This document shows positions 28,644-51,863 of a stretch of 55,962 bases of DNA, in pieces. The DNA is from Promethearchaeota archaeon. Lineage in GTDB: Archaea; Asgardarchaeota; Lokiarchaeia; Sigyniarchaeales; SOKP01. Below the pieces are notes generated by a model that worked only from the letters and a program-made list of their open reading frames with translations, had not been told where the DNA came from and made no database searches. The stretch lies in contig JBHLMQ010000015.1 of NCBI GenBank assembly GCA_048938005.1, positions 1 through 55,962 of the forward strand, written 5' to 3'. The position numbers were made by a program, and so were the translations under genes. The stretch's first letter is position 1; the number at the start of each line of letters is the position of its first letter.

Positions 28644-28848
28644 TTTTTCAACCTTAAGTTATATGTTCAAGTACTTTTAATTATATTGCTTATTTTTTTA
28701 AGAATTATTTAAAAAAAACCGCAAACCTTGCACCTATATTTTAAATTTTGAAACTGAATATCTCAAAAAACTTGATTTTTAAAATTTGTCAAGATTTATC
28801 GTTCACAGAATAGACAGAATAAGATTTTTTTATTTAGAATTAAAGATT

Positions 28849-29283: not shown

Positions 29284-29302
29284 GATTTATCCACATTCTA
29301 TT

Positions 29303-33678: not shown

Positions 33679-33815
33679 TTCATTCAGTTAATTCAAATTT
33701 TAATAATTTGAACTGATAATGATTAGAAAAAAAGTAGAAAGAATTTATTTTTTCTGATTAGTTTTCATAACTCTATTGGCAAAGGAGGAATAGATTTTTA
33801 TAATGAGCTGATAAA

Positions 33816-34331
33816 TTACAATTCTTTTGTGTAGTAAGAGTCTAATGTTTTTATAACAAATATTTTAACTATAACTAAAAATAGAGATAGTAAACCACAA
33901 TAAAAACCAGGTAATATTCTTTCATTTATAGATATATTTTTCCAATAATCAAAAAAAATCATATCATCTCCAGCCACCTCATAAAAAAGAATTGGAATAA
34001 TAAGGCTGCCTATCAACGCTATGATCATCAATACCAAACTTAAATAGTAAGGAATTGATTTGTCAAAATTTCTATAAAAAATGAATTGCGCAAAAACTCC
34101 TTGTACAAAGAAAATTGATAAAATAATATATACAGGTTGGCCATAGACACTACTGTAAGGATAAGTAAACATACTATAATTCCAAACTGCATAAAAAGGC
34201 TCAGAATATTCAAATTCCTGGAGATACCATTCAATGTGAAATATTCCTAATATTATAGTTAGAAGGACGGTTAAAAGAATAATCGAGTTGAATATCAATT
34301 TTACTATAATGGATTTTATTGTATTTTCCAT
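33816..34331 (-). CDS. Hypothetical membrane protein
   Basis: 171 aa with about 4 hydrophobic segments, ATG start, no recognisable motif. Confidence 0.55.
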   Translation of the reverse strand: MENTIKSIIVKLIFNSIILLTVLLTIILGIFHIEWYLQEFEYSEPFYAVWNYSMFTYPYSSVYGQPVYIILSIFFVQGVFAQFIFYRNFDKSIPYYLSLVLMIIALIGSLIIPILFYEVAGDDMIFFDYWKNISINERILPGFYCGLLSLFLVIVKIFVIKTLDSYYTKEL

Positions 34332-34458
34332 TATTTTTGATATTTTTGTTAAATTATATTGTGATTGTATATCCCAAGATCCTTTTAAATTTAGTCATAA
34401 TTCTAATACGAAATGAGGATATGCTTAAAAAAATGAAACGGATTTCTTATATTTCAAT

Positions 34459-37400
34459 TTACATAGCAAGTGTTTTTATCATAGCATTAATTTGTTCAAA
34501 ATCATAGTGCTTTATAGAAATTGCCCCAACTGGACAATTCACAGCACAAGTCCCACATCCTTTACATAGTCCTGAATTTACAGAAGAATTTTTTATTGGT
34601 AAACTCACTTCTTCAAATTCCTTCATGACGCTCTTAGTTTCTATAGCATTATAGGAACAGGTTTCCTCACATTTTCCACATCCGATACACGTCTCTGGAT
34701 CTATTTCTGCTATTAACCCCGATGTAGTAATTTCTTCTGCGCTTAAAAATCTACATGCTCTTCCTGCGGCTCCATTTGCTTGTGATATTGAATCTTGGAT
34801 ATTTTTTGGCCAATGAGCACAACCACACAAGAATATCCCATCAGTAGCAAAATCTAATGGCCTTAATTTAACATGAGCCTCTAGAAAAAATCCATTACTG
34901 TCTAGAGGAACCTTGAGCATTTTTGCAAGCTCATCTAAATTGTCAGCGGGAACCATAGGTGTCGATAATACTAATAAATCTGTACTAAATTTGATATTAT
35001 CCTGTAAATTGGTATCAAAAACTTTAATTTCAAACGTACTTGTTTCTCCATTTATCTCTTTGATTACAGGTGGATTATCTAAATCATATCTCAAAAAAAT
35101 AGCATCTTTTCTTCGCTCACGATAATATCTTTCAAATTCTTTCTTTGCCATTTGAAGATCTCTATAAAGAACAATTAATTTGAGGTCATGCTTTAATTCT
35201 TTTAGAAGGTTAATGTTTTTTATTGCACTTTCACAACAAATATTTGAGCAATAGGTTATCCCTTTTTCTTGTCTAGCATTGACACATAATAGAGTAGTTA
35301 TATGATTAAGTTTGTTTAGCCATGATTTATCTTCATCCTTTAATTTCTGTTCAAGTTGTAATTGTGTAATTACATTGTGGTTTGTATAAGTATATTCAAA
35401 AAATTCATTAGGTTTTAATTCTTGTCCTCCTGTGGCAACAATAATAGTACCAATTTTTAATTCATGAATCTTATTACCGGAATCACTTAGAGAAACATCA
35501 TAATTTCCGATATATCCATTGATATTTTTTAAATCAGAATTTAAAAAGATTTGAATGTTCTTATTTTGTTTAACTTTTTCTATAGTTTCGTTTAGTAAGA
35601 CTGAAGCGTCCTCTTGAGTAGGATATAGCATATTCAAATACTTTAAATTTCCACCTAAATATTTATCTTTTTCTATAAGATAAGCTTTAAATCCTTGATT
35701 AGCAATATTTAATGCAGCAGTCATTCCAGATATACCTCCACCAATTACTAATGCTGTTTGAGTGATTTTTAGTTTTTTTTCTTCTTGCGATTTTAATAAT
35801 CTTGATTTAGCGACTCCCATCCTTATTAAATCAACTGCTTTTTCCGTAGCGAGCTCCTTCTCTGTCATGTGTACCCATGAACATTGGTCACGGATATTTA
35901 CCATTTCGAATAAATATTTATTTAAACCAGCTTCTTGACAAGTTTCTTGAAATAAGCTTTCATGCGTCCTAGGAGTACAAGACGCTACAATAAATCTATT
36001 TAAATTGTATTCACCTATTACTTCTTTAATTCGTTCTTGAGAATCTGAACTACAAGAATACAAATTATCTTCACAAAACACTACATTGGGTAAAGTTTTT
36101 ACCTGTTCTATAACTTGAGGAATGTCAATATATTTTCCAATATTAATACCACAATGACAGATAAGGACTCCAATTCTTGGAATATCTGTTTCTTTAACTA
36201 TTTTTTCCGGTATTCCAATAATTTTTTCTTTCGTTTCAGTAAACTTAAAAGAATTAAGTAAAGTTGCTACTTGTGAAGCTACCCCACTAGAGTCAGCAAC
36301 CGTTTCTGGTATATCCATCGGACCTTGACAAAAACCAGCTAAAAAGATACCTTCTTTAGTGGATAAAGATTTATTAAAATATGATTTCTCTTTAAAAAAA
36401 TTATATTGATCTAGTTCAATATTTAAAACTTCAGCTAATTCTTTAGTTCCAGCTGAAGGGACTAGAGGTGTAGCCAATACTACTAAATTAGCATGAAAGT
36501 CCTTAAATTCACCCGTTTTTAGATCTTCATAATGAATTACTAAATCATTTGTTTCTGGATTTTCGATTATTCTACTAATTTTTGTTTGTAAATATTTTAC
36601 TCCATATTCTTTTTGAGCTCTCTGGGTAAATTCATAGAAATTTTTTCCATATGCTCTAACATCATGTCTAAATACAAAACATTTTGAATTTTCAGAATGT
36701 TCTTTTGTAATAATGGCTTCTTTGGCAGTATACATACAACATACACTTGAACAATAGGGAATTCCCTCACGTAAATCTCTTGAGCCTGCACATTGAATAA
36801 ATGCTATTATCTCAGGTTCTTTCTCATTACTAGGTCGTAAAATATGACCCTCAAATGGTCCAGAAGCCGATAACATTCGTTCATATTCTAAAGCACTTAC
36901 TACATTTTTATAATTATATCCCCACCTTGAAGTTAACTCTTCCCCTAACATGTCATATCCAGTAGCAACAACGATAGCACCAACTTTTAAATTGATTTTT
37001 TGAGGTTTCTGTTCATAGTCTATTGCTTCTGCCTTACAAACTTTTTCACAAACCCCACATACTCCTTTAGTAAGTTTCAAGCATAATTCTTGGTCAATTA
37101 AATATACTGGAGGTACTGCTTGCGGAAAAGGAATGTAGATAGATTTTCTTTTACCAAGATTCATATCAAAGATGTTAGGGGTTTCAATTTTTGGACATTT
37201 AGCAGCACAGTCACCACATCCCTTACATTTCGTCTCATCAATATAACGAGGTTTTTTAAGGACTGTAACCTCAAAATTTCCTGGCTTTCCTGTAACTTTT
37301 TGAACTTCATGGTATGTCATTAATTCAATATTAGGATTTCTAAATACTTCTACCATTTTCGGAGCAAGAATGCATAAAGAACAATCATTTGTAGGAAATG

Positions 37401-37539
37401 TTTTGTCAAGTTGAGCCATCCTCCCTCCAATTGAAGGGGCTTTTTCTACAAGGTAAACTTTAAATCCCAATTCAGTTAAATCTAAAGAAGTTTGTATCCC
37501 TGCTATCCCACCACCAATAACTAATACTGATCCTTCCAT
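34459..37539 (-). CDS. hdrA: Large tandem HdrA-like flavoprotein, copy 2
   Basis: Same architecture and motifs as 29303-32398. Confidence 0.9.
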   Translation of the reverse strand: MEGSVLVIGGGIAGIQTSLDLTELGFKVYLVEKAPSIGGRMAQLDKTFPTNDCSLCILAPKMVEVFRNPNIELMTYHEVQKVTGKPGNFEVTVLKKPRYIDETKCKGCGDCAAKCPKIETPNIFDMNLGKRKSIYIPFPQAVPPVYLIDQELCLKLTKGVCGVCEKVCKAEAIDYEQKPQKINLKVGAIVVATGYDMLGEELTSRWGYNYKNVVSALEYERMLSASGPFEGHILRPSNEKEPEIIAFIQCAGSRDLREGIPYCSSVCCMYTAKEAIITKEHSENSKCFVFRHDVRAYGKNFYEFTQRAQKEYGVKYLQTKISRIIENPETNDLVIHYEDLKTGEFKDFHANLVVLATPLVPSAGTKELAEVLNIELDQYNFFKEKSYFNKSLSTKEGIFLAGFCQGPMDIPETVADSSGVASQVATLLNSFKFTETKEKIIGIPEKIVKETDIPRIGVLICHCGINIGKYIDIPQVIEQVKTLPNVVFCEDNLYSCSSDSQERIKEVIGEYNLNRFIVASCTPRTHESLFQETCQEAGLNKYLFEMVNIRDQCSWVHMTEKELATEKAVDLIRMGVAKSRLLKSQEEKKLKITQTALVIGGGISGMTAALNIANQGFKAYLIEKDKYLGGNLKYLNMLYPTQEDASVLLNETIEKVKQNKNIQIFLNSDLKNINGYIGNYDVSLSDSGNKIHELKIGTIIVATGGQELKPNEFFEYTYTNHNVITQLQLEQKLKDEDKSWLNKLNHITTLLCVNARQEKGITYCSNICCESAIKNINLLKELKHDLKLIVLYRDLQMAKKEFERYYRERRKDAIFLRYDLDNPPVIKEINGETSTFEIKVFDTNLQDNIKFSTDLLVLSTPMVPADNLDELAKMLKVPLDSNGFFLEAHVKLRPLDFATDGIFLCGCAHWPKNIQDSISQANGAAGRACRFLSAEEITTSGLIAEIDPETCIGCGKCEETCSYNAIETKSVMKEFEEVSLPIKNSSVNSGLCKGCGTCAVNCPVGAISIKHYDFEQINAMIKTLAM

Positions 37540-37622
37540 TATTTAACACTTTTAAATTTTTTTAATAAAAATTAGTTTTCCGCATCTTTTTTTCCATTGA
37601 ATAAAAAATAAAGAAATGTAAT

Positions 37623-37637
37623 TATATAAATATTTTT
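37623..37637 (-). promoter_or_regulatory. Putative BRE/TATA internal promoter upstream of hdrA copy 2
   Basis: Minus-strand AAAAATA-TTTATATA about 85 nt upstream of ATG 37539, within a ~560-bp intergenic gap. Confidence 0.35.
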
Positions 37638-38103
37638 ATGAAAAATGATCGGAATCCACCATTTTTCGCTTTTAAAATGATCAGTCCCATGCATCTATCA
37701 TTTCTAGGTTTTCGTAATTAGTCATAGTCTACATCTTTCTTTAATATTTCTGAATGTTTTGTTCGTTTTTGTTAGGAATATAAGGGAAAGAGATCCAGAA
37801 TGATAATTTTTCTTTTATGTATGATAGATTTGGGTAGGATTATATTTTTCAGTTTTCTTTAATCTGCATTATGTTAATTGTTGATAATAATACAAGTTAT
37901 AATGATCAATCTCTAGCACATTATACATTTTAAATAGCGAGATCGATCAAGAATTAAAATAATGCAAAAAATGGAAAGGGTATTGACATATTAGAGGATA
38001 ATTTGAACATATAATTTTAATATATCTTTAGAATAATGAAAAAATTAATTTAATCCTCTAATAAATATTAGAGTTATTTATTTTTTTTTATGAAAAGTAA
38101 TTT

Positions 38104-38535
38104 TTAGATTGGTCTTAAGGGACCTAGTTCTTTAATTTGATTTGTGAATTCTGTAATGACTTCAGCAAATCGTTTTCCTTCAGATGCACTTACCCACTCA
38201 AGTCTAAATCTTTTTTCAAGATTAAACATTCTTAAAATTTCTCGGAAATTTTCAAATCTATCTCTTGCAAACTCATTTCCCTTCAAGTAATGACAGTCGC
38301 CAATATGACATCCAGTTACAATGACTCCATCAATTCCATTTTTAAATGCCTCTAAAATAAAAGCGGGATCTACCCTTCCAGAACACATTACTCTGACAAT
38401 TCTAATAGTAGAGGGGTATTGAAATCGTGAGACTCCGGCTAAATCAGCTCCAGCATAGCTACACCAATTACAGCAAAAACACAAAATATTTGGGTGAAAT
38501 TCCTTTTTACTTACTTTCTTTTTTGACTTAGACAT
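38104..38535 (-). CDS. mvhD: MvhD-type [2Fe-2S] subunit (Cys form), copy 2
   Basis: [29 protein letters not shown]. Confidence 0.92.
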   Translation of the reverse strand: MSKSKKKVSKKEFHPNILCFCCNWCSYAGADLAGVSRFQYPSTIRIVRVMCSGRVDPAFILEAFKNGIDGVIVTGCHIGDCHYLKGNEFARDRFENFREILRMFNLEKRFRLEWVSASEGKRFAEVITEFTNQIKELGPLRPI

Positions 38536-38553
38536 ATATTAACACCTTATAAT

Positions 38554-41500
38554 TTAACTTTGAACTAAAAGAGCAGAAATCATGGCATTTATTTGTTCAA
38601 AACCAAAATGCTTAATAACTATTGTTGAATTGGGGCATTGTGCACCACATGTACCACAACCTTTACAAAGCGCAGGATTTACATGAGATTTCCTTATAGT
38701 CATTGTGATATCTTCAAAGGATCTTTCTGTCTCAATTAATTCTATAGCATTAAATTGACAGACTTCTACACAGCTTCCACAGCCAATACAATTTTCTTCT
38801 ATTACAACAGCTACAAGTCCAGAAGTTACAAGTTTTTCTGTACTTAAAATTTTGACTGCTTGAGCAGCAGCGCCATTGGATTGTGTAATTGATTCTCGAA
38901 GATCTTTGGGTGAATGAGCACACCCACATAAATATATTCCATCTGTAGCAAAATCAATTGGTCTCAGTTTAACATGAGCTTCCAAAAAGAATTTATCCTC
39001 ATTAAGTGGGACTTTTAACATTTTTGCTAACTCTTCATTTTCTTTTATGGGTGCTACGAGTCCTGTACTTAGCACAAGTAAATCAGGATTTATTTCAAGA
39101 TCCCCTAAGTCTGGATTGTTTACTTTAATTGTTAACTGTTCTTTTTTAATATTTAATTCTGGAGGTTTAGATTCATCAAACCTAAGAAATATAATCTTTT
39201 TATCTCGTGCTAAGTTGTAAAATTTTTCTTTAAAACCATATGTTCGAATATCACGATATAGAACTACTATTTCAATATTAGGGTTGATTTCTTTTGCTTT
39301 TAATGCATTTTTAATGGCTTCAGAACAGCATATTCGACTACAATATGGATGTTCTTCATTTCGTGATCCAACGCATTGAATCATAACTATTGATTTCAAA
39401 CCTTTTATTTTATCAGTAGTAAAAAGATCTTTTTCAAATTCAGTTTGGGATATAATTCTTTGATCTTCCCCAAAACTATATTCTTTTGGTTGATATTCTT
39501 TCGCTCCAGTAGCTACAATTATTATTCCATGTTCAAGATCAACACTTTTGCTATTATTTCCATAACTTACATTTGTGGAAAAATTCCCGATATATCCTGA
39601 TATTGAATTGATTTGAGCATTTTTAATTACGTGGATAAATTGATTATTATCAACTTTTTTAATTAGGTTTTCAAGAAACTCTTGAACATCATCATTTTCG
39701 AGGGTTCGATAAATATTTTTAGCAAATCCACCTAGAGAATCTTCCTTCTCAATTAAGAAAACTTCATAACCTTGAGAAGCTAGATTTAATGATGCAGACA
39801 TTCCAGAAACACCCCCACCTATGATTAATCCTTTAGGTATTACGGTTATTTCTTGTTCCTGTAATGGGATTAATTGGCTAGCCTTTGCTACTGACATACG
39901 CAATAAGTCTTTTGATTTTGCAGTTGCTTTTTCATGTTCGTGCATATGAACCCATGAACATTGATCTCGAATATTAACCATTTCAAAAAGGTATTTATTT
40001 AAACCAGCTTCTCTAATTGTTGCTTGAAATAAAGCTTCATGAGTTCTTGGAGTGCATGAAGCAACTATAACTCTATTCAGTTGATTTGCTTCTATTTTTT
40101 CTTTTATACTTGTTTGAGTATCTGCAGAACAAGTATATAAATTGTGCTCAGCATAGACTACATTAGGTAATGTTTTAACATATTCAACAACTTCAGGTAC
40201 GTCAACAACACCACCTATATTTATCCCACAATGGCAAATAAATACACCTATGCGTGGTGGTTGATCGCTTACATCTAATTCTTCAGGAAGTTCTTTTTTT
40301 GAGACCAATTTATTTCTTGCTTCTGGCAGGAGTACATTCACACGTCCTGCAGCTGCACTTGCTTCGATAACAGTTTCTGGAATATCTTTAGGTGATGCAA
40401 ACGCTCCACATACATAAATTCCCGGTTTTGAAGTCTCTACTGGACTGAAAGTATTGGTTTTACAAAAACCATATTCATTTAACTCGATATTTAATTTCTG
40501 AGCTAAATCTTTTGCTCTTTGATTAGGTTGCATTCCTACTGAAAGAACAACAAGGTTAAAAATTTCTTCAATAATTTTTCCATTTTCTGTCTCATAATAA
40601 ACTTTCAAATCTTTAGAATACGGGATCTCTTTAATAGACGATATTCTACGTCTAATGTATCTTACTCCATATTCATCTCTCGCTCGTTCAATATATTTGT
40701 CAAAATCCTTACCGTATGCTCGGATGTCCATCGTAAAAATGGTTGGTTCTACAATATCCATGTGTTCTTTAGCAATAACTGCTTCTTTTGTAGTATACAT
40801 ACAACAAACTGAAGAACAATAATCAATACCATGTTGTTTATCTCTTGAACCAATACATTGTAAGAACGCTATTTTTCTAGGAATAATTCCATCAGAAGGG
40901 CGAAGTATTAAACCAGCATGTGGTCCACTAGCGCTTAATATCCGTTCGAATTCAGTACTCGTGATAACATTTAAATATTTACCATAACCAAGTTGAGTTA
41001 AAGGAGTTGGATCATACTCATCAAAACCAGTTGCTAGTATTACCGCTCCTACATTAAGTTGAATATTTTTATCTTGAAGTTCATAATTTATAGCTTCGGC
41101 TTTACATATTCCTTCGCAAACTCCACAACCTACACATTTGTCTTTATTAATTGAAAAAACTAAAGGAACAGCCTGTGGAAATTTCACGGAGATTGCTGTT
41201 TTGTTTGAGAGGCCTTTATTAAAAATGTCAATTGCTTCTATAGGGCATTTTTGAGCACATAACCCGCAACCTGTACATTTATTTTGATCCAAATAAAGTG
41301 TCTTTTGAGTTAAATCAACTATAAAATTTCCTGGTTCTCCTTCAATTTTTTCTATATTTGAGTTTATTAAAATGTCAATATTTTCATGGCGACCAGTTTG
41401 TACTAATTTCGGAGCAAGAATGCATATAGCACAATCATTAGTTGGAAAAGTTTTATCTAATTGAGACATTACTCCTCCTATACTTGTTGTGGATTCAGCT

Positions 41501-41595
41501 AGATAAACCTTATATCCTGAATCTGCTAAATCTATAGAACTCTGAATTCCAGCAATACCCCCTCCTATAACTAAAACAGCGCCGACTTTCTCCAT
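38554..41595 (-). CDS. hdrA: Large tandem HdrA-like flavoprotein, copy 3 (most divergent)
   Basis: GGGIAG, DCAIC, QCIGSRD, CHCGINI, QCVGSR, C-terminal ferredoxin. Confidence 0.9.
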   Translation of the reverse strand: MEKVGAVLVIGGGIAGIQSSIDLADSGYKVYLAESTTSIGGVMSQLDKTFPTNDCAICILAPKLVQTGRHENIDILINSNIEKIEGEPGNFIVDLTQKTLYLDQNKCTGCGLCAQKCPIEAIDIFNKGLSNKTAISVKFPQAVPLVFSINKDKCVGCGVCEGICKAEAINYELQDKNIQLNVGAVILATGFDEYDPTPLTQLGYGKYLNVITSTEFERILSASGPHAGLILRPSDGIIPRKIAFLQCIGSRDKQHGIDYCSSVCCMYTTKEAVIAKEHMDIVEPTIFTMDIRAYGKDFDKYIERARDEYGVRYIRRRISSIKEIPYSKDLKVYYETENGKIIEEIFNLVVLSVGMQPNQRAKDLAQKLNIELNEYGFCKTNTFSPVETSKPGIYVCGAFASPKDIPETVIEASAAAGRVNVLLPEARNKLVSKKELPEELDVSDQPPRIGVFICHCGINIGGVVDVPEVVEYVKTLPNVVYAEHNLYTCSADTQTSIKEKIEANQLNRVIVASCTPRTHEALFQATIREAGLNKYLFEMVNIRDQCSWVHMHEHEKATAKSKDLLRMSVAKASQLIPLQEQEITVIPKGLIIGGGVSGMSASLNLASQGYEVFLIEKEDSLGGFAKNIYRTLENDDVQEFLENLIKKVDNNQFIHVIKNAQINSISGYIGNFSTNVSYGNNSKSVDLEHGIIIVATGAKEYQPKEYSFGEDQRIISQTEFEKDLFTTDKIKGLKSIVMIQCVGSRNEEHPYCSRICCSEAIKNALKAKEINPNIEIVVLYRDIRTYGFKEKFYNLARDKKIIFLRFDESKPPELNIKKEQLTIKVNNPDLGDLEINPDLLVLSTGLVAPIKENEELAKMLKVPLNEDKFFLEAHVKLRPIDFATDGIYLCGCAHSPKDLRESITQSNGAAAQAVKILSTEKLVTSGLVAVVIEENCIGCGSCVEVCQFNAIELIETERSFEDITMTIRKSHVNPALCKGCGTCGAQCPNSTIVIKHFGFEQINAMISALLVQS

Positions 41596-42368
41596 TATTT
41601 CCCCTCCTTAATTGATATAAATGTTGGAATCTCTTCATGTATTTCATCAAGATCAACCAAACCTCTCTGTCTTAGAGTGACAATATGATTTAATACTTCA
41701 TTTGGCTTAACTTGTATCTCGTTCGATATTTCTGGTACTGATTTGCTCGAATCTTTAATTTTTTGTAATATTTTGTAACGAATAAATTCATTATATAAAC
41801 TATCATCAAGAATTTCTTCAAATTCTTCTTTTGGTATTATTTCATTATATACATTACCTTCTGTAGTAATTAGCCTTTCTCTACTAACTAATGTTCTAAT
41901 TCTAGAATCAGCCAATACAGATTTAATTACTTCAAAATTCTCTAATAATTCTTTTTTCAATTTTTTGTTTTTTATAGGTGAAGGACCTAAATTAGTAATA
42001 AATTCATTAAAATCATTTACTAGTTGAGCAAACCTATTACCCTCAGAAGCCGAGACCCAATCCAAACGAAAACGTTCTGAAAATCCAACATAATTTAATA
42101 ATTTTCTAAGCATGTTCATTTTCATCTCTGCTTCATAATTACCGGTCATATAATGACAATCTCCTGGGTGACAACCTAAAACAAGGACCCCATCAACTTT
42201 TTTTAAGAAAGCTTCAGCTATAAAAATGGGATCAACTCTCCCACTGCACATTACTCTTATAATTCTAATATTAGGAGAATATTGAATTCTACTTACACCC
42301 GCAAGATCAGCTCCAGCATAAGAACACCAATTACATAAAAATCCTAAAATTTTTGGTTTAAATGCCAT
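41595..42368 (-). CDS. mvhD: MvhD fused to a C-terminal helical/winged-helix domain
   Basis: ATG 42368 after SD GGAGGAG; [19 protein letters not shown]; about 120-aa extension ending in wHTH-like SVPEIS..I......VLNHIVTLRQRGLV. Confidence 0.88.
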   Translation of the reverse strand: MAFKPKILGFLCNWCSYAGADLAGVSRIQYSPNIRIIRVMCSGRVDPIFIAEAFLKKVDGVLVLGCHPGDCHYMTGNYEAEMKMNMLRKLLNYVGFSERFRLDWVSASEGNRFAQLVNDFNEFITNLGPSPIKNKKLKKELLENFEVIKSVLADSRIRTLVSRERLITTEGNVYNEIIPKEEFEEILDDSLYNEFIRYKILQKIKDSSKSVPEISNEIQVKPNEVLNHIVTLRQRGLVDLDEIHEEIPTFISIKEGK

Positions 42369-42372
42369 CTCT

Positions 42373-45300
42373 TTATTCTCCTCCATAGGCAGTAATTTCT
42401 GATAAAATTTGCTCATTTGTAAAATGAAATACTGTTATTGCATTTTCTGGACAACTCGCACCGCATACACCACAGCCTTTACAAAGCAATTTATTTATAA
42501 CTACATTTCCCTCTTCGTTCTTTGATATGGCATTATATGGGCAGAGTTTTATACACACTTTACAACCAACACATAATTCATTATTCACTTCTGCTACTAA
42601 TCCCGAAGCAATAATATCTGCTGAACTTAAAATTCTACTTGCTCTTCCTGCTGCACCATTCGCTTGAGTGATAGATTCTTGAATATGCTTTGGCCAGTGA
42701 GCACACCCACATAAAAATACACCATCAGTAGCAAAATCTACTGGTCTCAATTTAGCATGAGCTTCTAAGAAAAAACCATGTTTATCTAAAGGTACTTTAA
42801 GCATTTTTGCCAATTTTTCTGAATCATCTGAGGGAACCATAGGAGGTGATAATACGATTAAATCCGTATCAAAATTGATAATATCTTGTAAATTAGTATC
42901 AAATACCTTTATTCCGTATTTTTCAGGTTTATTGCTAATTTTAGTGATTTCTGGTGGCATATCTAAACTATATCTCAGAATCATAGCATCCTTCCTTCTA
43001 TTAAAAAAATATTCTTCAAATTCTTTTTTAGCCATTTGAAAATCTCTATAAAGAATTATTATTTCGAGATCTGGCTTTAGGTCTTTTAGGATGTCCATGT
43101 TTTTGATAGACGTAGCACAACAAATATTTGAACAATATGTGATTCCTTCTTTTTGTCTAGCATCGGCGCATAATATAGTTGTAACACGCTTGATATTATC
43201 GAGCCAAGTTTTATCTTTCTTTTTTAAATTCCGTTCTAATTCTAATTGAGTAATTACATTTTGATTTTTATTATTATATTGAAGATATCCAAGAGGTTTT
43301 AATTCTTGACCTCCAGTGGCAACAATAATAACACCAACTTTAAATTCGTTAATTTCATTTTTGGAGTCAGTAATAGTTATATCATAATTACCTACATATC
43401 CTTTAACATCTTTTACTTTAGATTCTAAACTAATTTGTATATTTTTATTTGCTCTAACATCCTGTTTTATTTTTTCTAAAAATTCTGATGTATCTTCATG
43501 AGTGGGATACAAAAGATATAAATCATTCAGAATCCCCCCTAGTATTTTTTCTTTTTCTACAAGATAAACTATAAATCCTTGATTAGCGAGATTTAATGCA
43601 GCAGTCATTCCGGATACTCCACCACCAATTATTAATGCTTTCTGAGAAACTGAGAGCTTTGGTTCTTTTTGGGACCTCAATAATCTGGATTTAGCAACGG
43701 TCATTTCGATTAAATCTTTAGCTTTCTCGGTAGCTAATTCCTTTTCAGTCATATGAACCCAAGAACACTGATCACGAATATTCGCCATTTCAAAGAGGTA
43801 TTTATTTAATCCAGCTTCTTGACAAGTTTCTTGAAATAAGGATTCATGCGTTCTTGGGGTACAAGAAGCCACAATAAATCTATTTAAATTATATTCATTT
43901 ATAACTTCCTTAATTCTTGCTTGTGAATCACTAGAACATGAATATAAATTATCTTCACAATATACTACATTAGGTAATTTTTTTATGTAGTCTACAACAT
44001 TAGGAACATCGATATATTTTCCAATATTAATACCACAATGACAAATTAGTACACCAATTCTAGGTTCATCTGTTAAATTAACTTCTTTTTCTGGTATATC
44101 AAATACTTTTTCTTTTATTTGAGTAAATTTAGCAGAACTTAATAAAGCTGCTACTTGAGATGCTACCCCACTGGCATCAGCTACTGATTCTGGTATATCC
44201 ATCGGACCTTGACAAAATCCTGATAAAAATATACCTTTTCTTGAAGATAAAGATTTAGTAAAATGATTTTGTTCCTTAAAGAAATTATAATCATCTACGT
44301 TAATATCTAGAATCTTTGCTAATTCTCTAGTTCCTTTAGATGGCACTAAGGGTGTAGCTAAAACAACCATACTTGCCCTAAATTCGTTAAGTAATCCAGT
44401 TTGTAGATCTTCATAACGAATAACTAAATCATTTGTTTCTGAATCTTCTACAATTTTACTAATTTTCGAATGAAAATATATTACTCCATATTCTTCTTGA
44501 GCTTTTTGAGTAAATTCATAGAAGTTTTTTCCATAAGCTCTAATATCATGTCTAAATACATAACATTTGGTTTGCTCTGAATGTTCCTTAGTTATTATTG
44601 CTTCTTTCGCTGCATACATGCAGCATACACTTGAGCAATAGGGGACTCTTTCGTGTAAGTCTCTTGAACCCGCACATTGAATAAAAACTATAGTTTCGGG
44701 TTCTTTTTCATCACTAGGACGTACAACATGTCCACCATATGGTCCAGATGCGCATAAAATTCTCTCATATTCAAGGGCAGTTACAACATTTTCATAACGA
44801 ATACCCCACCTTGATGTTAGATTATCTCTAGTCATATCAAAACCGGTTGCTACGACGATTGCTCCTACATGCAATTCAATTTCTTGAGGCTTTTGTTCGA
44901 AATCTATTGCTTCCGCTTCACATACTTTCTGGCATACACCACATACATCTCTAGTTAATTTTAAGCACATCTCAGGATCAATTAAATAGACGGGAGGAAC
45001 TGCCTGAGGAAATGGAATATATATAGACTTTCTTTTTCCTAGATTCATGTCAAAAACATTAGGAGCTTCAATTTTTGGACACTTAGTAGCACAATCACCA
45101 CAGCCTTTACACTTATTTTCATTAATGTATCGAGGTTTTTTAAGTACTGTTACTTTAAAATCTCCAGGTTCTCCTGAAACTTTTTGGACTTCATGATAAG
45201 TCATTAATTCAATGTTAGGATTTCTGTATACCTCTACCATTTTTGGGGCTAAAATGCATAAACTACAATCTAAAGTTGGGAAAGTTTTATCCAGTTGAGC

Positions 45301-45423
45301 CATTCTCCCTCCAATCGAGGGTGTTTTTTCTACAAGATAAACTTTCAAACCTATTTCAGTCAAATCCAAAGATGCTTGAATTCCGGCTATCCCCCCACCA
45401 ATGACTAACACTGAGCCCTCCAT
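42373..45423 (-). CDS. hdrA: Large tandem HdrA-like flavoprotein, copy 4
   Basis: Same architecture as copies 1 and 2; TAATG overlap with the upstream gene. Confidence 0.9.
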   Translation of the reverse strand: MEGSVLVIGGGIAGIQASLDLTEIGLKVYLVEKTPSIGGRMAQLDKTFPTLDCSLCILAPKMVEVYRNPNIELMTYHEVQKVSGEPGDFKVTVLKKPRYINENKCKGCGDCATKCPKIEAPNVFDMNLGKRKSIYIPFPQAVPPVYLIDPEMCLKLTRDVCGVCQKVCEAEAIDFEQKPQEIELHVGAIVVATGFDMTRDNLTSRWGIRYENVVTALEYERILCASGPYGGHVVRPSDEKEPETIVFIQCAGSRDLHERVPYCSSVCCMYAAKEAIITKEHSEQTKCYVFRHDIRAYGKNFYEFTQKAQEEYGVIYFHSKISKIVEDSETNDLVIRYEDLQTGLLNEFRASMVVLATPLVPSKGTRELAKILDINVDDYNFFKEQNHFTKSLSSRKGIFLSGFCQGPMDIPESVADASGVASQVAALLSSAKFTQIKEKVFDIPEKEVNLTDEPRIGVLICHCGINIGKYIDVPNVVDYIKKLPNVVYCEDNLYSCSSDSQARIKEVINEYNLNRFIVASCTPRTHESLFQETCQEAGLNKYLFEMANIRDQCSWVHMTEKELATEKAKDLIEMTVAKSRLLRSQKEPKLSVSQKALIIGGGVSGMTAALNLANQGFIVYLVEKEKILGGILNDLYLLYPTHEDTSEFLEKIKQDVRANKNIQISLESKVKDVKGYVGNYDITITDSKNEINEFKVGVIIVATGGQELKPLGYLQYNNKNQNVITQLELERNLKKKDKTWLDNIKRVTTILCADARQKEGITYCSNICCATSIKNMDILKDLKPDLEIIILYRDFQMAKKEFEEYFFNRRKDAMILRYSLDMPPEITKISNKPEKYGIKVFDTNLQDIINFDTDLIVLSPPMVPSDDSEKLAKMLKVPLDKHGFFLEAHAKLRPVDFATDGVFLCGCAHWPKHIQESITQANGAAGRASRILSSADIIASGLVAEVNNELCVGCKVCIKLCPYNAISKNEEGNVVINKLLCKGCGVCGASCPENAITVFHFTNEQILSEITAYGGE

Positions 45424-46703
45424 TATTTTTTTACCTCCACACTTTTAACAGAATCAATTGTTTCTATCATATCTACCAAAAATTCTGAGAAATCTAAAAT
45501 TTCAATTTTAGAGAAATCATCATAATCTTTTTTTAGGCAATTTAAATGGTTACGGCATTTGGGACACGAAGTAATCATTTTTGTTCCGACAGCTTTAGCT
45601 TCTGAAAGACGTTTGTATCGTAAAGCCTTAGATCGCTCGTTACAATTCATCCAAGAGTTAACTCCACAGCAATAAGAATTTTCTTTATTATGTTCCATTT
45701 CCCTAAACTCATAACCTATTTTTTTAAGGTGTTGAAAAATCTCTCGAACTTGCTCAATGATTTTATTATCTTTTGGTAAAAATTTACTTAGTCTACAGGG
45801 ATCGTGATATGTAAAAGGGATAATTTCATCAGATTTAGTTGGATTTTTGAATTGAACTTTACCCTGCTTCCATTTATCAAAAACATATTCAATTAAATGT
45901 TTAACTTCAAATTTTTCATTAAAATCTTCAAATAATTTTGGATAATCTATTTTAAATGTTCTATAACATTCAGCACAAGCTGTTATTATTGTTGAGATTC
46001 CCGCTTTTTTGAATAATTTTAAATTTTTCTTCGCTAATTCAATAAAAACTTCGAATTTTCCTTGACCCCAATATAAATCATGACCACAACATATCTCCTC
46101 TTTAAGAATTACTATTGGTTCTTTCTCAATTTGACAAATGATTTTCAAAGTGCTTTCCGCAATAGAGATAATATTCTCAAATTCAAAAGTAAAAAAAGGC
46201 AAACATCCTACATAATATAAAATATTTCCTTTATCTGAAATTTTGCAACCTTTTTGAACCCAATCCAACGGTCTTTCAATTTCAATATTTGGTTGACTCA
46301 TTAATTCAGACATCATAGGATAGATACCTTTATGAGCAATAGATCGATCAAGGTTGTGAATACCTTTCATTCGCATTTTATATCGAGCAATTCTTACAAT
46401 ATCAGCAAAATTTATATCCTTAGGACACATCTGAAGGCAACTATTACACATTAAACAATCCCATAATACCCCACTCTCAATTACCTCATCTTCAAAACCT
46501 TCTAATATCATCTGGATAATTCTACTGGGTGTAAATTTTTGAACTTTACTTATTTGGCATACACCTGAACAACGAGCACATTGATAACATTTTTTTAACA
46601 AGTTAACTAAATCTGGCTCGTATATTTTTGCTAAGTACGAATCAAATTCATTAACTTCTGGTTTAATTTTCTCAGACTTTTCCAATTCTGTTATCAAGCT
46701 CAC
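45423..46703 (-). CDS. HdrD/GlpC-like Fe-S oxidoreductase, copy 2
   Basis: CYQCARCSGVC, CLMCNSCLQMCP, two CCG domains; clear paralog of 32398-33678. Confidence 0.85.
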   Translation of the reverse strand: MSLITELEKSEKIKPEVNEFDSYLAKIYEPDLVNLLKKCYQCARCSGVCQISKVQKFTPSRIIQMILEGFEDEVIESGVLWDCLMCNSCLQMCPKDINFADIVRIARYKMRMKGIHNLDRSIAHKGIYPMMSELMSQPNIEIERPLDWVQKGCKISDKGNILYYVGCLPFFTFEFENIISIAESTLKIICQIEKEPIVILKEEICCGHDLYWGQGKFEVFIELAKKNLKLFKKAGISTIITACAECYRTFKIDYPKLFEDFNEKFEVKHLIEYVFDKWKQGKVQFKNPTKSDEIIPFTYHDPCRLSKFLPKDNKIIEQVREIFQHLKKIGYEFREMEHNKENSYCCGVNSWMNCNERSKALRYKRLSEAKAVGTKMITSCPKCRNHLNCLKKDYDDFSKIEILDFSEFLVDMIETIDSVKSVEVKK

Positions 46704-46707
46704 TTCC

Positions 46708-47820
46708 TTATTGTAAATTTTTCATGAATTCTTCTTTTCGCTTTATTTTTGATTCAGAAAACTTAATTAGTAGCTCTTTCATATCGGTTTTTGCTTTAGC
46801 GTCAAGTTCTAATGATTTAATAATATTTTTGTCTAATACTTCATGAAATAGTTTTTTACCTTTATCAGTTCGAGGTATTACAGTAGTATATTTATCTTGA
46901 GAACCAAGTCCTCCAAATGAAATATCTGAATATATATTTGTAAAGTCAATACAAGAATGACAAGCAGGTCGTATATAATCAACTAGCTGATCGAAAGGAA
47001 TACGGATAATTTTCTCTTTAGAATTTTTATCTTCTACTTTTAAAATTAGAGCCTCCTTAATATTTATTTTTTTAATATTTTCAAACTTGATTTTAAAATT
47101 TTTTTCAAATTTTTCTTTTTTAGATTTATCGAATAAGAAATTATGATAACAAAATAATCCTAAACAAATTTCGATATATTCTGAGGGTGTGACACCCAAA
47201 TTTTGCATACACCTTATTGTGTAGATTTGACAAGGTGTGCCCACTATAGCTAATTTTTTAAATTTATAATGATTCAATTTTACAATAGAGCGAGTATAAG
47301 TACTAAATCTTTGTATCTCGTCTAATTGTGAAGTTATTTCTAGTTTTGTCCCGGAAGCTTTAATTAATTCATCCTTTTTGCCTGCAAACATGGATTCTCT
47401 AGAAAATGGAGCATCAAATTTAGATACTATTGCTCCATCAATTACTTTTTTTTCTAATAAGTAATTTATTAAAGTATTTACAACACCTCCATCAGTTCCA
47501 TATTTTAAGAATTCAGGGTCATTGGTTTGACAGGAATAGATATCTTCTAATTTGCCAAGAGGCTTGGAAGCAAAATCTGTAAATTGATAAGTTTTATTGA
47601 GATCCTCATCTAAAATATGTGTTTGAGGGCAAATACAATAACATATACCACATTCAAGGCATGCATCCTTATTTATATACTCCGGAGGTGAAAATGGCTC
47701 TTTAAAGCCGATTACATTTTCAAATGTTGCTGAACAGAAAGAAGTACATCCCCCACATTCCTGGCAGATGCCTTTTTCATGAACTTCCTTAATTAAATCT
47801 TGAAATGTTTTTGAACTCAT
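46708..47820 (-). CDS. FrhB/FdhB-family (F420-interacting) subunit with N-terminal ferredoxin
   Basis: ATG 47820 (MSSKTF); CQECGGC, CLECGICYCICP, DGGVV, VGTPCQ, GLFC, CHSC.DF...SDISFG. Confidence 0.85.
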   Translation of the reverse strand: MSSKTFQDLIKEVHEKGICQECGGCTSFCSATFENVIGFKEPFSPPEYINKDACLECGICYCICPQTHILDEDLNKTYQFTDFASKPLGKLEDIYSCQTNDPEFLKYGTDGGVVNTLINYLLEKKVIDGAIVSKFDAPFSRESMFAGKKDELIKASGTKLEITSQLDEIQRFSTYTRSIVKLNHYKFKKLAIVGTPCQIYTIRCMQNLGVTPSEYIEICLGLFCYHNFLFDKSKKEKFEKNFKIKFENIKKINIKEALILKVEDKNSKEKIIRIPFDQLVDYIRPACHSCIDFTNIYSDISFGGLGSQDKYTTVIPRTDKGKKLFHEVLDKNIIKSLELDAKAKTDMKELLIKFSESKIKRKEEFMKNLQ

Positions 47821-47830
47821 AATATTAATT

Positions 47831-49333
47831 TTATTTTTCTTTCTTTTCCAATTTAATTGGTTCACAATTTTTTCTTTTTGTCCCAGCAATCCTTTCTAAT
47901 AAGGGTTGTCCTGGTTTAACATCTTTTAAACTTTTAGATTCTATTAATCCTGCTTTAATGGCTTCTTTATAGATTTTCTCACCTTTTTTATTTCGTGTAA
48001 TTACTGAGGACCAACCACTAGGTGAACCAATTGATCCTACAGAAATATCCGCAAAATCTGCAGTCAAATCCTCGCAGTAATGACAATTGTGCCGAGCATA
48101 AGATTTCACATCTTTTAATGGTACTTTTAAATCTCCGCCCGAATCTAAATAGATGATAAATTTACCACCACTTATATCCATTTTTGTTATTTTAGTATAA
48201 TCTTTATCAAATTGTTCCTTAATTAAGTTAAGTATACCCTCATAGGGAAAAGATTCCATGCAAAAAAGCCCAATTTTATATTTAATATTTTTGAAAAAAG
48301 GTAAGCCACTCGGAAACAAATTTCCTTTCTCTAAAGCATTCATCATACAAGGAACTCCTACAATTGCTATATTTTCATATTGTTTTGTATCATCTATTAT
48401 AGAGAGTGTTGAGGCGTTAGCATATTTAGTTCCTCCAGTCTTATATAAATCTTTAACATCCTCTATTATAACTGGCTCAGGTTTCCATAATTCCTTTGAA
48501 TGCTGTACTGCTACGATTGCGTCAACTAGTTTATTTTTGAGTAAATATTCAAGGATCGAGGTTACAATCCCTCCATCTTGTCTTACTTTTTTAATCTCAT
48601 CCTTAGTGGTTGTGGCAGAATATGCATTAATATAACCATTAATCTTTTCTGAAAATTTCAATGCTTTATCGAGTTTATTAATACTTTTGCCCACTTGTTC
48701 AATTGAAAATGATCTGGGACAAACAGAATAACACAAACCGCATTTTATGCAATTATCATCATCTATATCTAAAGTATCTGCTGTCGCTTTAATAGCATTT
48801 ACGGGACAAATTGATGAGCACCAACCACATTGACAGCATACTTCAGATTCAAACACTAAAGAGACTGGTTCAAAAAAGTGTTCAATGAAATCCTCAGGAA
48901 TATCTTTAAATTGATACCTATAGAAATATTCTTTTTCTTCGACTTCTTTTTCTTCTCCTTTAATTTTTTTAATTACTTTTTTAGTTTTTATTTCAATATA
49001 TTCTTCAACATATCCTTGTTCTTTCAGATAGATTATATCACGAATTACGTTTTCTTGAGGAAAATCGTTTACAATTTTTGCAATTTCCTCTAAAAATAAC
49101 GGTTCATTACCCTTTAATTTCTCTAACACTAATTTGCGCTCTGTTTCAGCATCAATCATGGCATCTAATATTTCATAGAATTCTTCTTCAGAATATTTTC
49201 CAGTATTCAAAATTTCCTCTTTTGCTTCGTAAAAAGCTCGAATTTGAAAATTCTCGACTGCTTTATAGGTAGCATCCATTAAATTTTTTGGCGATATTCC
49301 ATTGAAATTGATATTTTTAGCAATTTGAACCAT
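47831..49333 (-). CDS. FrhB/FdhB-family subunit with N-terminal helical/winged-helix domain and ferredoxin
   Basis: CCQCGWCSSICP, CIKCGLCYSVCP, QDGGIVT, GTKY, GVPCM, GLFCME, CHYC.D..ADISVGSIG. Confidence 0.88.
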   Translation of the reverse strand: MVQIAKNINFNGISPKNLMDATYKAVENFQIRAFYEAKEEILNTGKYSEEEFYEILDAMIDAETERKLVLEKLKGNEPLFLEEIAKIVNDFPQENVIRDIIYLKEQGYVEEYIEIKTKKVIKKIKGEEKEVEEKEYFYRYQFKDIPEDFIEHFFEPVSLVFESEVCCQCGWCSSICPVNAIKATADTLDIDDDNCIKCGLCYSVCPRSFSIEQVGKSINKLDKALKFSEKINGYINAYSATTTKDEIKKVRQDGGIVTSILEYLLKNKLVDAIVAVQHSKELWKPEPVIIEDVKDLYKTGGTKYANASTLSIIDDTKQYENIAIVGVPCMMNALEKGNLFPSGLPFFKNIKYKIGLFCMESFPYEGILNLIKEQFDKDYTKITKMDISGGKFIIYLDSGGDLKVPLKDVKSYARHNCHYCEDLTADFADISVGSIGSPSGWSSVITRNKKGEKIYKEAIKAGLIESKSLKDVKPGQPLLERIAGTKRKNCEPIKLEKKEK

Positions 49334-49415
49334 AATTCCATCCTTCAGGAATATATTTTTTTGAAAAATTTAACTTTTTAATTGAATACTATTTAAAAAC
49401 CCCTTCCTTTGCTAG

Positions 49416-49461
49416 GTTAGTCTTCTTATAACCAGAATTTTTTTATAAGAATCATTCTAAC
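49416..49461 (-). ncRNA. Eukaryote-like SECIS element (cis-acting Sec insertion hairpin)
   Basis: Minus strand reads GUUAG-A-AUGA-UUCUUAUAA-AAAAAUUCUGG-UUAUAAGAA-GA-CUAAC: 5-bp lower stem, AUGA/GA kink-turn core, perfect 9-bp upper stem, A-rich apical loop; sits at the 3' end of UGA-containing genes. Confidence 0.85.
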
Positions 49462-49913
49462 GGGGTAGTTATAATTTCTGTTGTTTCAACTTTTGATTCT
49501 TTATCTACTAAATTAATTGGACTAGGTCCAGCTTTTTTTAGTTTTTCATAAGCGTCCTCAACAGATTCGACAAATTTCCCAGCATCTCCTCCACTTAACC
49601 AATACATATTAATTCTTTGATTTCCGAAACCTCTGGATTCTAAGATTCTATTTGCTAATTCAACATGTCTTTCAGCAGTAAAATTGCCATTTTTAAATTG
49701 ACATTCATTAGGGCGTCAACCAACAATCATAACACCATCAGCTCCCGCGCGAATGCTATATAAGATGTGCTTAACATCAATTCTGCCAGTACATCTTACT
49801 TTGACAATTTTGACAGCAGGTGTATATTTCAATCGAGAAACTCCTGCTAAATCAGCCGCGCTATATCCTCACTTTAAACAAGCGAATACAACCATTTTAT
49901 AAGTATTTTCCAT
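49452..49913 (-). CDS. vhuD: Selenoprotein MvhD/VhuD (153 aa, Sec15 and Sec66); absent from the ORF track
   Basis: ATG 49913: MENTYKMVVFACLK-U-GYSAADLAG..RCTGR..GADGVMIVG-U-RPNEC..WLSGGD..GPSP..TPLE*. TGA at 49869-49871 and 49716-49718 align with Cys of CNWC and GCH in paralogs; SD GGAGGT upstream. Confidence 0.92.
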
Positions 49914-49919
49914 GTCTGT

Positions 49920-51863
49920 CTAACCACCTCCTAAAAGACCATCAATTTCAGCAAATAGTTGATGATCTCGATAATACCTTATATCAATAGCCTGAGTTGG
50001 ACAGCATGTGGCACAAATACCGCATCCATCACAGTTTATCTCATCAATAAACGCTCCAATATCCTCTTCAATCCTAATGGCATTTTTTGGGCATTCTTTT
50101 TCACACCTTCTGCATGAAATACAAAATTCGCTGTCAACTTCAGCTGTTATCAGTTCTAAATCGATTTCTCCGGGAGCTGTTAATTCAGCTACTTTACTAG
50201 CGGCAGCTCTAGCTTGAGAAACTGAATAAGAAATATTTTTTGGACCCTGAGCAAACCCAGCTATAAAAATCCCTTTTGTCTTTGTTTCTTGCGGCATTAA
50301 ACCAAAGTGTGATTCTGTAAGGAAACCATATGTATTAGTATCAAGATTTAATACTTGAGCAATCTGTTGAGTACCTTTTGAAGGGAGTGCTGCTGTGGAT
50401 AAAACTACTAAATCAGCATCAATTTTTACAATCTTATCTGTAAGAGATGAATACACCCGAACTTTCACGTTTTTTGTTTCAGGATCTTCAGAGATTTCAC
50501 CTACTTTTCCTCGAATCATTTTAATCCCTGCTTCTTTAGCTCGTTCATAGTACTCTTCAAATCCTTTTTCAGGAGTTCTTATGTCAATATAACAAATTGT
50601 AATGTTTGCATCAGGAAATTCTTCTAAAAGTAATCGTCCATTTTTAAGAGCAAGCATGCAGCAAACACCACTACAATAAGTACGCTCAGTTTCTCGACTT
50701 CCTACGCATTGTATAAATACAATTTCTTTGGGTTCCTTGTTATCCGAAATTCTATGCACATGTCCCTCAAGAGGTCCATTTGGGGCTAATATACGTTCTA
50801 ATTGAGGTTGAGTTATGACATTTTCGAACTCTCCATATCCATATTCTCCAAATGGTTCATAAATGTCCCAACCAGTTGCTATAATGATCGTTCCAACATT
50901 AATATTAACTTCTGTTGGTACTTGACTAAAGTCAATAGCATCTAATTCACAAGCATCTACACAGGAGAAGCACTCTACACAAGCATCTCTGTCGATATCA
51001 TAAAGAAACGGTACTGCTTGACCAAATGGAATGTCTATTGCCTTTCGTGCTCCTAAATATTCGTCGAAATAATTAGTTGTGTAAACTGGACAAACTTCAG
51101 CACATGCTCCACATCCATTGCATTCATCTGTTGTATAACGTGGTTTCTTTTCAATCGTTACATTGTAATTACCAACATAACCTTCTATATTCTTTACCTC
51201 GCAAAATGTTAATAATTCAATATTTTCATTTCTGTTAACTTCAAGCATTTTAGGTCCGCAAATTCATATAGCACAATCGTCTGTAGGAAATGTTCTGTCC
51301 AATTGAGCCATTCTTCCACCGATGGTTGTTTTATGGTCAACTAAGTAGACTTTAACGCCTTGATTTGCAAGATCCAGAGCTGCATTCATTCCACCAATCC
51401 CTCCTCCAATGACCAATGTAGCCTTTGTAACCGGAACGGTTCTAATAGGGACTGGCTCTAAGAGTTTGGCTCTGTCAATACCACTTTTAACCAATATTTT
51501 TGCTTTTTCTGTAGCTTCTTCTTTGCTATCTGTACACCAAGAACAATGTTCACGAACATTAACCATTTGAAAATAATATGGGTTTAAATCTGTTTTTGCT
51601 ATAGTACCTCGGTAAATTACTTCATGTGTCCGTGGGGTTCAAGCCGATGCTACAATTCTGTTTAAATTCTTTTCATTGATATCCTCAATTATTTCATTTT
51701 GCGCATTATCAGTTCAAAGAAATGAGTTTTTCTTTGAAATTATGATTTCGTCTCCAAGGTTTTTTACATAGTCTACTAATTCATCGCAATCTACTTTACT
51801 TCTAATATTAATACCTCATTGACAAGCATAGTATCCAATCCGATGATTTTCTTTATCACTCAT
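49920..51863 (-). CDS. hdrA: Selenoprotein HdrA (647 aa, Sec16, Sec50, Sec75, Sec200); split in the ORF track
   Basis: ATG 51863 after SD GAGGTGG; single frame to TAG 49920-49922 with TGA at 51816-18 (CQ-U-GINI), 51714-16 (SFL-U-T), 51639-41 (SA-U-TPRTHE) and 51264-66 (DCAI-U-ICGPK), each matching Cys in paralogs. Confidence 0.92.

Follow-up and report, generated by a model that had tools for sequence, protein, structure and literature searches.

The window analyzed here is a stretch of 55,962 nucleotides (nt) from a Promethearchaeota archaeon (GenBank assembly GCA_048938005.1, contig JBHLMQ010000015.1, positions 1 to 55,962). Its minus strand contains, in 5' to 3' order, a gene for heterodisulfide reductase subunit A (hdrA; positions 49920 to 51863), a vhuD/mvhD-type gene (49452 to 49913), and a putative selenocysteine insertion sequence of the type described for Lokiarchaeota (lokiSECIS; 49421 to 49455). 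Six in-frame TGA codons, four in hdrA and two in vhuD, are probably read as selenocysteine (Sec, U). The vhuD gene starts with the ATG at 49913 and comprises 153 sense codons followed by a TGA stop codon (49454-49452), and its internal TGAs are codon 15 (49869 to 49871, context CLK-U-GY) and codon 66 (49716 to 49718, context VG-U-RPNEC). The ATG lies 6 nt after the TAG stop codon of hdrA and 10 nt after a Shine-Dalgarno-like (SD) sequence, GGAGGTGG (49924 to 49931), located within the final hdrA codons. The frame, the SD sequence, the spacing from hdrA, and both TGA contexts had been proposed in the initial annotation of the window, and all were confirmed, on the minus strand.

With U read as C, the vhuD product matched the Pfam family FlpD/MvhD (PF02662) over profile positions 2 to 123 of 123, at an E value of 8e-42 that excludes chance and with a score of 142.6 bits (cut-off, 22.3). 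When the same genome was searched in six frames, 15 FlpD copies emerged, 4 of which had two TGAs inside, including the window gene at 132.6 bits. Three Cys-type MvhD paralogues on the minus strand of the window, at 41595 to 42416 (with a C-terminal helix-turn-helix [HTH] extension), 38104 to 38535, and 28849 to 29283, served as comparison copies and were 34 to 37% identical to the Sec-type protein. In an alignment of these four sequences, both Sec columns were invariant Cys once U was read as C, as had been noted at the outset, and the family pattern C-x2-C, C, C-x4-C appeared in vhuD as C12, U15, C41, U66, and C71, all in invariant columns. Cys-type MvhD proteins (the three paralogues and chain D of PDB 5ODC) share the fold family and the five conserved Cys/Sec positions, but they have Cys at the two Sec sites, lack a SECIS, and are called normally by gene finders. 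The closest solved relative of vhuD is chain K of PDB 9SFI (E 5e-39 over residues 8 to 134), named as the delta subunit of F420-non-reducing hydrogenase in entries 9SFI and 9T1S, which according to the published text are the Hdr-Vhu-Fwd and Hdr-Vhu-Fdh complexes of Methanococcus maripaludis (PMC13518236). Chain K carries X, a nonstandard residue, at exactly the two positions aligned to the vhuD UGAs. Because this residue occurs in a protein called a selenoprotein complex, we read X as Sec, which agrees with the earlier statement that methanococcal VhuD has Sec at the equivalent positions. These comparisons argue that the window gene is a genuine two-Sec member of the VhuD/MvhD family.

Orthologues were collected from one genome per species, which yielded 54 loci, almost all of them in Promethearchaeota and other Asgard metagenome-assembled genomes; the best orthologue was 86% identical to the window protein, and identities ranged from 65 to 86%. 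With the window included, the first vhuD site is TGA in 52 of 52 sequences and the second in 51 of 51. These counts leave out a C-terminal fragment (L063), a Cys paralogue at 35% identity (L064), and a bacterial match at 33% identity (L066), and for the second site also an N-terminal fragment (L065). Substitutions were analyzed in a gap-free core, 118 codons long, shared by 49 sequences. Third codon positions accounted for 0.68 of the differences before the first UGA, 0.71 between the two, and 0.68 after the second, and the synonymous share of differing codon pairs was 0.66, 0.74, and 0.64 in the same segments. This bias in all three segments argues for protein-coding selection on the whole vhuD frame. 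The SD sequence and the ATG at 49913 are conserved as well. Sequencing contigs from relatives also span both UGA sites and the hdrA/vhuD junction; they come from two runs labelled metatranscriptomic but probably DNA and from two DNA runs. In one DNA run, possibly made from the source sample, contigs are identical to the window over 49380 to 50095, which attests the presence of the locus and is silent on its transcription.

The upstream hdrA gene comprises 647 sense codons (51863 to 49923) and ends in TAG (49922-49920). Its four in-frame TGAs are codon 16 (51816 to 51818, context CQ-U-G), codon 50 (51714 to 51716, FL-U-T), codon 75 (51639 to 51641, SA-U-TPR), and codon 198 (51270 to 51272, CAI-U-ICG), and by eye all four match Cys motifs of the long Cys-type HdrA genes of the window. 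The last of them corresponds to the canonical Sec site of HdrA, which is placed at about position 200 in the published text of Mariotti et al. 2016 (PMC4989117) and is described as Sec197 in M. maripaludis HdrA (PMC13518236). With TGA read as U, the product contains FAD/Pyr_redox and 4Fe-4S domains (Pfam). Among the orthologous loci with at least 2 kb of upstream sequence, an hdrA-like frame ends 3 to 18 nt before vhuD in 46 of 46; U is found at all four hdrA sites in 34 of these 46 and Cys at the second site in 3. When TGA is read as Sec, the orthologous hdrA frames stop at TAA (33 sequences) or TAG (13 sequences), with GGG, GGD, or EGG at the C terminus.

A further hdrA gene of the genome, a two-Sec frame of 678 codons on contig C78, ends about 14 nt before its own lokiSECIS at C78:9123. 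It has no vhuD downstream on its strand, and a Cys-type FlpD is encoded on the opposite strand at C78:10390-10758; the 2016 text describes hdrA and vhuD of Lokiarchaeota as always forming tandem pairs (PMC4989117).

The lokiSECIS overlaps the end of vhuD. It consists of an AUGA core (49455-49452), a 9-bp stem formed by 49451-49443 and 49431-49423 with all nine pairs intact in the window, an 11-nt loop (49442-49432) that begins with AAAAA and ends with G, and GA immediately 3' of the stem (49422-49421). The UGA of the core is the stop codon of vhuD; the initial annotation had noted neither the element nor this overlap. The element shows every feature listed in the published text (PMC4989117), although the penultimate loop nucleotide, which is most often A in the elements described there, is G in the window. 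Two orthologous contigs (L061 and L062) end before the SECIS; it is present in all 49 sequences that include downstream DNA, with invariant AUGA columns and a loop of 11 nt in 47 sequences, 10 nt in one, and 12 nt in one. RNAalifold recovered the stem from the orthologue alignment, and double-sided changes were found in six of its nine pairs. In a 17-pair structure of three helices that includes this stem, nine pairs showed such changes, and 92.3% of the cells were paired, compared with 42 to 58% in slid controls; its covariation score was reached by none of 500 shuffles, a comparison to be read with the caveat that the sequences are related.

The strict lokiSECIS pattern matched 10 times in the 3.72-Mb genome, compared with 0, 0, 0, 1, and 2 times in five first-order Markov simulations. 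A looser scan gave 52 matches, nine of which were picked by loop features; seven of the nine sit 4 to 135 nt past the end of a TGA-bearing open reading frame (ORF), and two, which fall within ordinary ORFs, were discarded. On contig C49, the genome's fourth hdrA-vhuD pair is followed by a SECIS with seven of nine stem pairs that fell below the scan threshold. The window has only one other loose match, at 33626, in which the loop features are absent.

The genome also encodes the machinery expected for Sec decoding. It contains a tRNA-Sec gene (61.7 bits, cut-off 47; identified by ARAGORN as tRNA-SeC(tca)), an adjoining gene for SepSecS (382 bits), and two SelD genes with one TGA each. The best candidates for the remaining factors are a full-length PSTK-like protein and, about 4 kb from the tRNA-Sec gene, a SelB/EFSec-like factor. 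TGA is an ordinary stop codon elsewhere in the genome: 293 of 2,265 long ORFs stop at TGA, and beyond it the next TAA or TAG comes after a median of 9 codons. This usage argues against a genome-wide reassignment of TGA, a rejected form of the alternative that the UGAs of hdrA and vhuD are read as Cys or Trp, whether by such a reassignment or by near-cognate readthrough. That alternative could draw on public calls of another TGA-bearing protein in related contigs, some of which read TGA as W, a code that gene callers thus select at times, and on the absence of TGA stops among the long ORFs of the window, but the complete Sec toolkit, the SECIS, and the nonstandard residues at both sites of the solved methanococcal orthologue all favor Sec, and we consider a non-Sec reading improbable.

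The stop codon usage of the window differs from that of the genome. None of the 41 nonoverlapping ORFs of at least 120 amino acids (aa) in the window ends in TGA (36 end in TAA and 5 in TAG), compared with 12.9% genome-wide; at that rate about 5 would be expected, and the probability of finding none is about 0.004. The lack of TGA stops could be due to chance, to a choice of codons linked to expression, or to UGA stops being avoided in the long Hdr operons of the minus strand. Elsewhere in the genome, 18 long TGA-ending ORFs remain open for at least 100 further codons; some of these may run into in-frame neighboring genes, and others could be further selenoproteins, such as SelD-type proteins with a different SECIS form.

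Standard gene callers recover no more than fragments of both genes. Under translation table 11, the only ORF of at least 40 aa on the vhuD strand within 49452 to 49913 is a 51-aa C-terminal piece (49452 to 49607) that has its own ATG and is held in the public collection as a called, unnamed protein. The initial claim that standard callers miss the gene entirely is thus slightly too strong, since this fragment is called and on record. Likewise, hdrA is recorded publicly only as a 442-aa C-terminal part, in a cluster of 82 members named "4Fe-4S binding protein" or "heterodisulfide reductase subunit A." Since both genes are recorded only as fragments, Asgard metabolic reconstructions built on standard gene calls misjudge the Hdr/Mvh modules, and therein lies the practical value of annotating the pair. 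The existence of the called fragment with its own start codon might also be taken to mean that translation ends at the first UGA, that only short products such as the 51-aa protein are made, and that the region is regulatory. This reading is even less probable than a non-Sec reading of the UGAs: the 51-aa piece contains none of the five conserved Cys/Sec positions, purifying selection extends over all 153 codons, and the SD sequence and start codon are kept at 3 to 18 nt from the hdrA stop. The weakest alternative, that vhuD is a former Cys-type mvhD copy decaying through nonsense mutations, as the redundancy provided by three intact Cys-type paralogues would permit and as a fragmentary gene call might suggest, is contradicted by the conservation data and was rejected, because both TGAs fall exactly on Cys columns and are kept in every orthologue counted, no frameshift, a sign of decay that the initial annotation had considered, occurs in the 49-sequence core, the third-position and synonymous bias persists past each TGA, a conserved SECIS follows the gene, and identities of 65 to 86% exclude that the orthologues are assembly copies of one sequence.

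We therefore favor, with a probability of roughly 0.9, the reading that the locus contains a functional VhuD/MvhD selenoprotein gene of a Promethearchaeota (Lokiarchaeota) genome and that one lokiSECIS recodes six UGAs across hdrA and vhuD. Several points weigh against it. The use of one SECIS by both cistrons is suggested solely by the lack of a second element near hdrA, where a pattern scan of 49920 to 51863 gave no further match. No Rfam family reached its gathering score in the window, and no Rfam SECIS model matched; standard SECIS tools are likewise reported to fail on the Lokiarchaeota elements (PMC4989117). The weak Rfam matches between 49200 and 52100 (E values up to 10) were attributed to chance, as they comprised microRNA and long noncoding RNA families and RybB, which matched within hdrA but antisense to it and scored 30.6 bits (gathering score, 40). 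The folding stability of the element alone is unremarkable (z scores of +0.37 for 127 nt and -1.0 for 96 nt). The PSTK-like protein scored 146 bits, under the equivalog cut-off of 290.5, and the SelB/EFSec-like factor scored 231.9 bits, just under the cut-off of 242.25, with curated models that were built on other lineages. Finally, no hydrogenase gene occurs in the annotated 28 to 55 kb of the window, so the name "Vhu" reflects orthology and no demonstrated partner; three hydrogenase large subunits are encoded elsewhere in the genome. To our knowledge, the published texts hold no experimental test of any lokiSECIS binding the Sec-specific elongation factor or driving recoding.

Under the favored reading of one SECIS for two cistrons, hdrA and vhuD would most likely be cotranscribed on a single mRNA, and the eukaryote-like lokiSECIS 3' of vhuD would recruit the Sec-specific elongation factor with Sec-tRNA(Sec). 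Six UGAs, 263 to 2,363 nt upstream of the AUGA, would then be read as Sec, the four in hdrA at 1.8 to 2.4 kb and the two in vhuD at 0.26 and 0.42 kb. Translation of hdrA would stop at its UAG, and that of vhuD would begin at the SD sequence and ATG 6 nt downstream. The seventh UGA, in the AUGA core, would act as the vhuD stop because it lies too close to, and indeed inside, the SECIS to be recoded. The VhuD protein would dock on HdrA and pass electrons from an input module to the bifurcating flavin adenine dinucleotide (FAD), and in place of a hydrogenase, this module may be one of two FrhB-like proteins whose genes follow immediately downstream.

The same arrangement has been described before. 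According to the published text of Mariotti et al. 2016 (PMC4989117), Lokiarchaeota HdrA has up to four Sec residues at five possible positions and VhuD has two, and each hdrA-vhuD pair shares one lokiSECIS that serves up to six UGAs over about 2 kb. The paper, which also proposes the shared-SECIS model, notes that every HdrA frame is closed by UAA or UAG and that the AUGA may contain a UGA stop. A later survey of 227 Asgard genomes with 1,439 selenoprotein sequences (Huang et al. 2024, PMC11227280) reports in its published text that hdrA and frhD/vhuD are always adjacent with a common SECIS. The window has the same order of hdrA and then vhuD at short distance on one strand, the same VhuD of about 150 aa with two Sec, an HdrA with the maximum of four Sec including one near residue 200, and a single SECIS after vhuD for six UGAs over about 2 kb, with no essential difference. 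Because the architecture in both studies matches the window, the gene type and its recoding signal, though real, were already known, for Lokiarchaeota since 2016, which the initial annotation had overlooked. One difference concerns the stop codon: in nearly all window orthologues vhuD stops at the UGA inside the AUGA core, whereas the 2016 text is explicit about such an overlap only for VhuU.1 (PMC4989117). The locus adds a further instance in which a single 3' SECIS apparently serves six UGAs in two cistrons, here in the archaeal lineage most closely related to eukaryotes, and its small size would make it a convenient natural system for testing lokiSECIS function with a reporter.

M. maripaludis VhuD belongs to the same family and has nonstandard residues at both UGA-aligned positions, but it depends on a euryarchaeal SECIS (PMC4989117) rather than a lokiSECIS, and its partner HdrA has one Sec, compared with four in the window. 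Its electron-input partner is a [NiFeSe] hydrogenase or a formate dehydrogenase, whereas the window neighbors encode FrhB-like and Hdr-like proteins. As described in the published text, eukaryotic SECIS elements, including those of multi-Sec mRNAs such as that of selenoprotein P, share with the lokiSECIS the AUGA...GA core in the 3' untranslated region (UTR), the A-rich apical loop, the action on distant UGAs, and an apparent minimal-distance rule (PMC4989117). The lokiSECIS differs in having a shorter upper stem and in apparently acting across two cistrons of a polycistronic mRNA, and the 2016 authors found no SBP2 in Lokiarchaeota (PMC4989117).

The three-helix structure mentioned above raises the possibility of a larger element around the SECIS. 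Its inferred outer helix, P1, would pair 49462 to 49466, among the final sense codons of vhuD (Thr-Thr-Pro), with 49399 to 49403 in the 3' UTR, and a small hairpin of three pairs, P3, would occupy 49406 to 49416, after the SECIS stem and before the second strand of P1. Across the aligned orthologues, the P3 pairs are formed in 96.6% of cells, and P1 shows compensatory variants. A P1 helix of at least 5 bp can be drawn in all 49 sequences, with a mean of 6.2 bp; its length alone is weak evidence, because composition-matched shuffles already give a mean of 5.1 bp. Minimum-free-energy folding of eight lokiSECIS elements of the genome itself, which stand beside unrelated genes and whose helix sequences differ, produced all three helices in five cases and the SECIS stem with the small hairpin but without the outer helix in two; the fold of the window element had the outer helix and the stem, with an alternative pairing in place of the small hairpin. 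Another candidate, a 5-bp helix right beside the core (49461-49457 with 49420-49416), has no mismatch in the window and was rejected as a general feature, since it is not kept in orthologues.

It is possible, if doubtful, that the recoding element is larger than the published 35-nt lokiSECIS and forms a three-way junction resembling a "k-junction," in which the outer helix would join the vhuD Thr-Thr-Pro codons to the 3' UTR, the AUGA/GA kink-turn core would carry the stop codon, and the 3' hairpin would have a GNRA-like loop. This layout is also compatible with the window element itself. If this structure exists and is required, every ribosome that terminates there would have to melt the element, which would explain why the core UGA acts as a stop and might pace Sec decoding on the two-cistron mRNA. 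The extended structure is a lead rather than a result. The 2024 text models a lower stem and an internal loop (PMC11227280); in the main texts, supplements aside, no mention of the outer helix was found in PMC4989117 and none of the extra 3' hairpin in either PMC4989117 or PMC11227280.

Directly after P1 lies a T5 tract (49395 to 49399, minus strand), which by its sequence may be an archaeal termination signal, may belong to a TATA-like box of the gene that follows, or both. In the window (49371 to 49400, minus strand) and its orthologues, this tract is followed by a TATA-like run and then by some 20 conserved nt (alignment columns 96 to 115), a block that is nearly identical in roughly 30 of the 49 orthologues and is situated about 40 to 65 nt upstream of the ATG of an FrhB-like gene at 49333. 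The region may combine a terminator with a promoter or regulatory site of the downstream genes.

Around vhuD, the minus strand of the window forms a gene array, beginning with two FrhB-like genes at 47831 to 49333 and 46708 to 47889. The region from 28000 to 47900 is unusually dense in Hdr-type modules: four "double" HdrA genes encoding proteins of 1,013 to 1,031 aa stand together with these FrhB-like genes and with genes for two 426-aa HdrB/C-like CCG-domain proteins, the three Cys-type MvhD copies, one of them HTH fused, and a flavin reductase. In M. maripaludis, as given in the published text, VhuD holds the [2Fe-2S] cluster K1 and feeds the FAD of HdrA, and hydrogenase and formate dehydrogenase are alternative partners of one and the same HdrA/VhuD surface (PMC13518236). 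By homology to the chains of 9SFI and 5ODC and to the system described in PMC13518236, the vhuD product would be a [2Fe-2S] adaptor that docks on HdrA. Because the M. maripaludis surface accepts either enzyme, an input module other than a hydrogenase is plausible for the window VhuD.

The genome-wide SECIS scan also pointed to other candidate selenoproteins. A 158-aa ORF of the same genome (G000:C17:134497-134970, plus strand) has two adjacent in-frame TGAs in the context VVHAD-UU-AD and is followed, 11 nt past its stop, by a lokiSECIS (C17:134982-135016). Among related Asgard loci (the set examined comprised L067, L095, and L070-L094), the TGA-TGA pair is kept in 24 of 25, the remaining locus not being read in frame; the 38 residues after the pair are conserved, and a SECIS was found in 20 loci. 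Most of the 120 public homologues listed are about 118 aa long, as they would be if truncated at the first TGA, and those that carry a name are called "hypothetical protein." Nine longer homologues that were examined (148 to 164 aa) have WW at the TGA-TGA position, and none has Cys-Cys. The protein had no Pfam match at E values up to 1; its AlphaFold2 (AF2) model has a predicted local distance difference test (pLDDT) score of 78, and the top PDB fold matches were the beta-grasp proteins SAMP1, Urm1, and MoaD, at a weak E value of 2.4e-3. Genes for an ArsR-type regulator, an SBF/ACR3-type transporter, an HD protein, and two S-adenosylmethionine (SAM) methyltransferases are its neighbors and hint at a metalloid context. 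As no such protein was found among the archaeal selenoprotein families named in the published texts, supplements aside, it may represent a new selenoprotein family.

Two small ORFs of the same genome are candidate selenoproteins as well, each predicted to encode a single-pass membrane protein with one TGA. The first (C73:12141-12278, plus strand; L068:142-279) is 45 aa long and ends in GTG-U-GG, and the second (C80:580-816, minus strand; L069:101-337) is 78 aa long, with the TGA in the context EPT-U-PSTC. Behind both ORFs lies a lokiSECIS that has the outer helix as well as the small hairpin.

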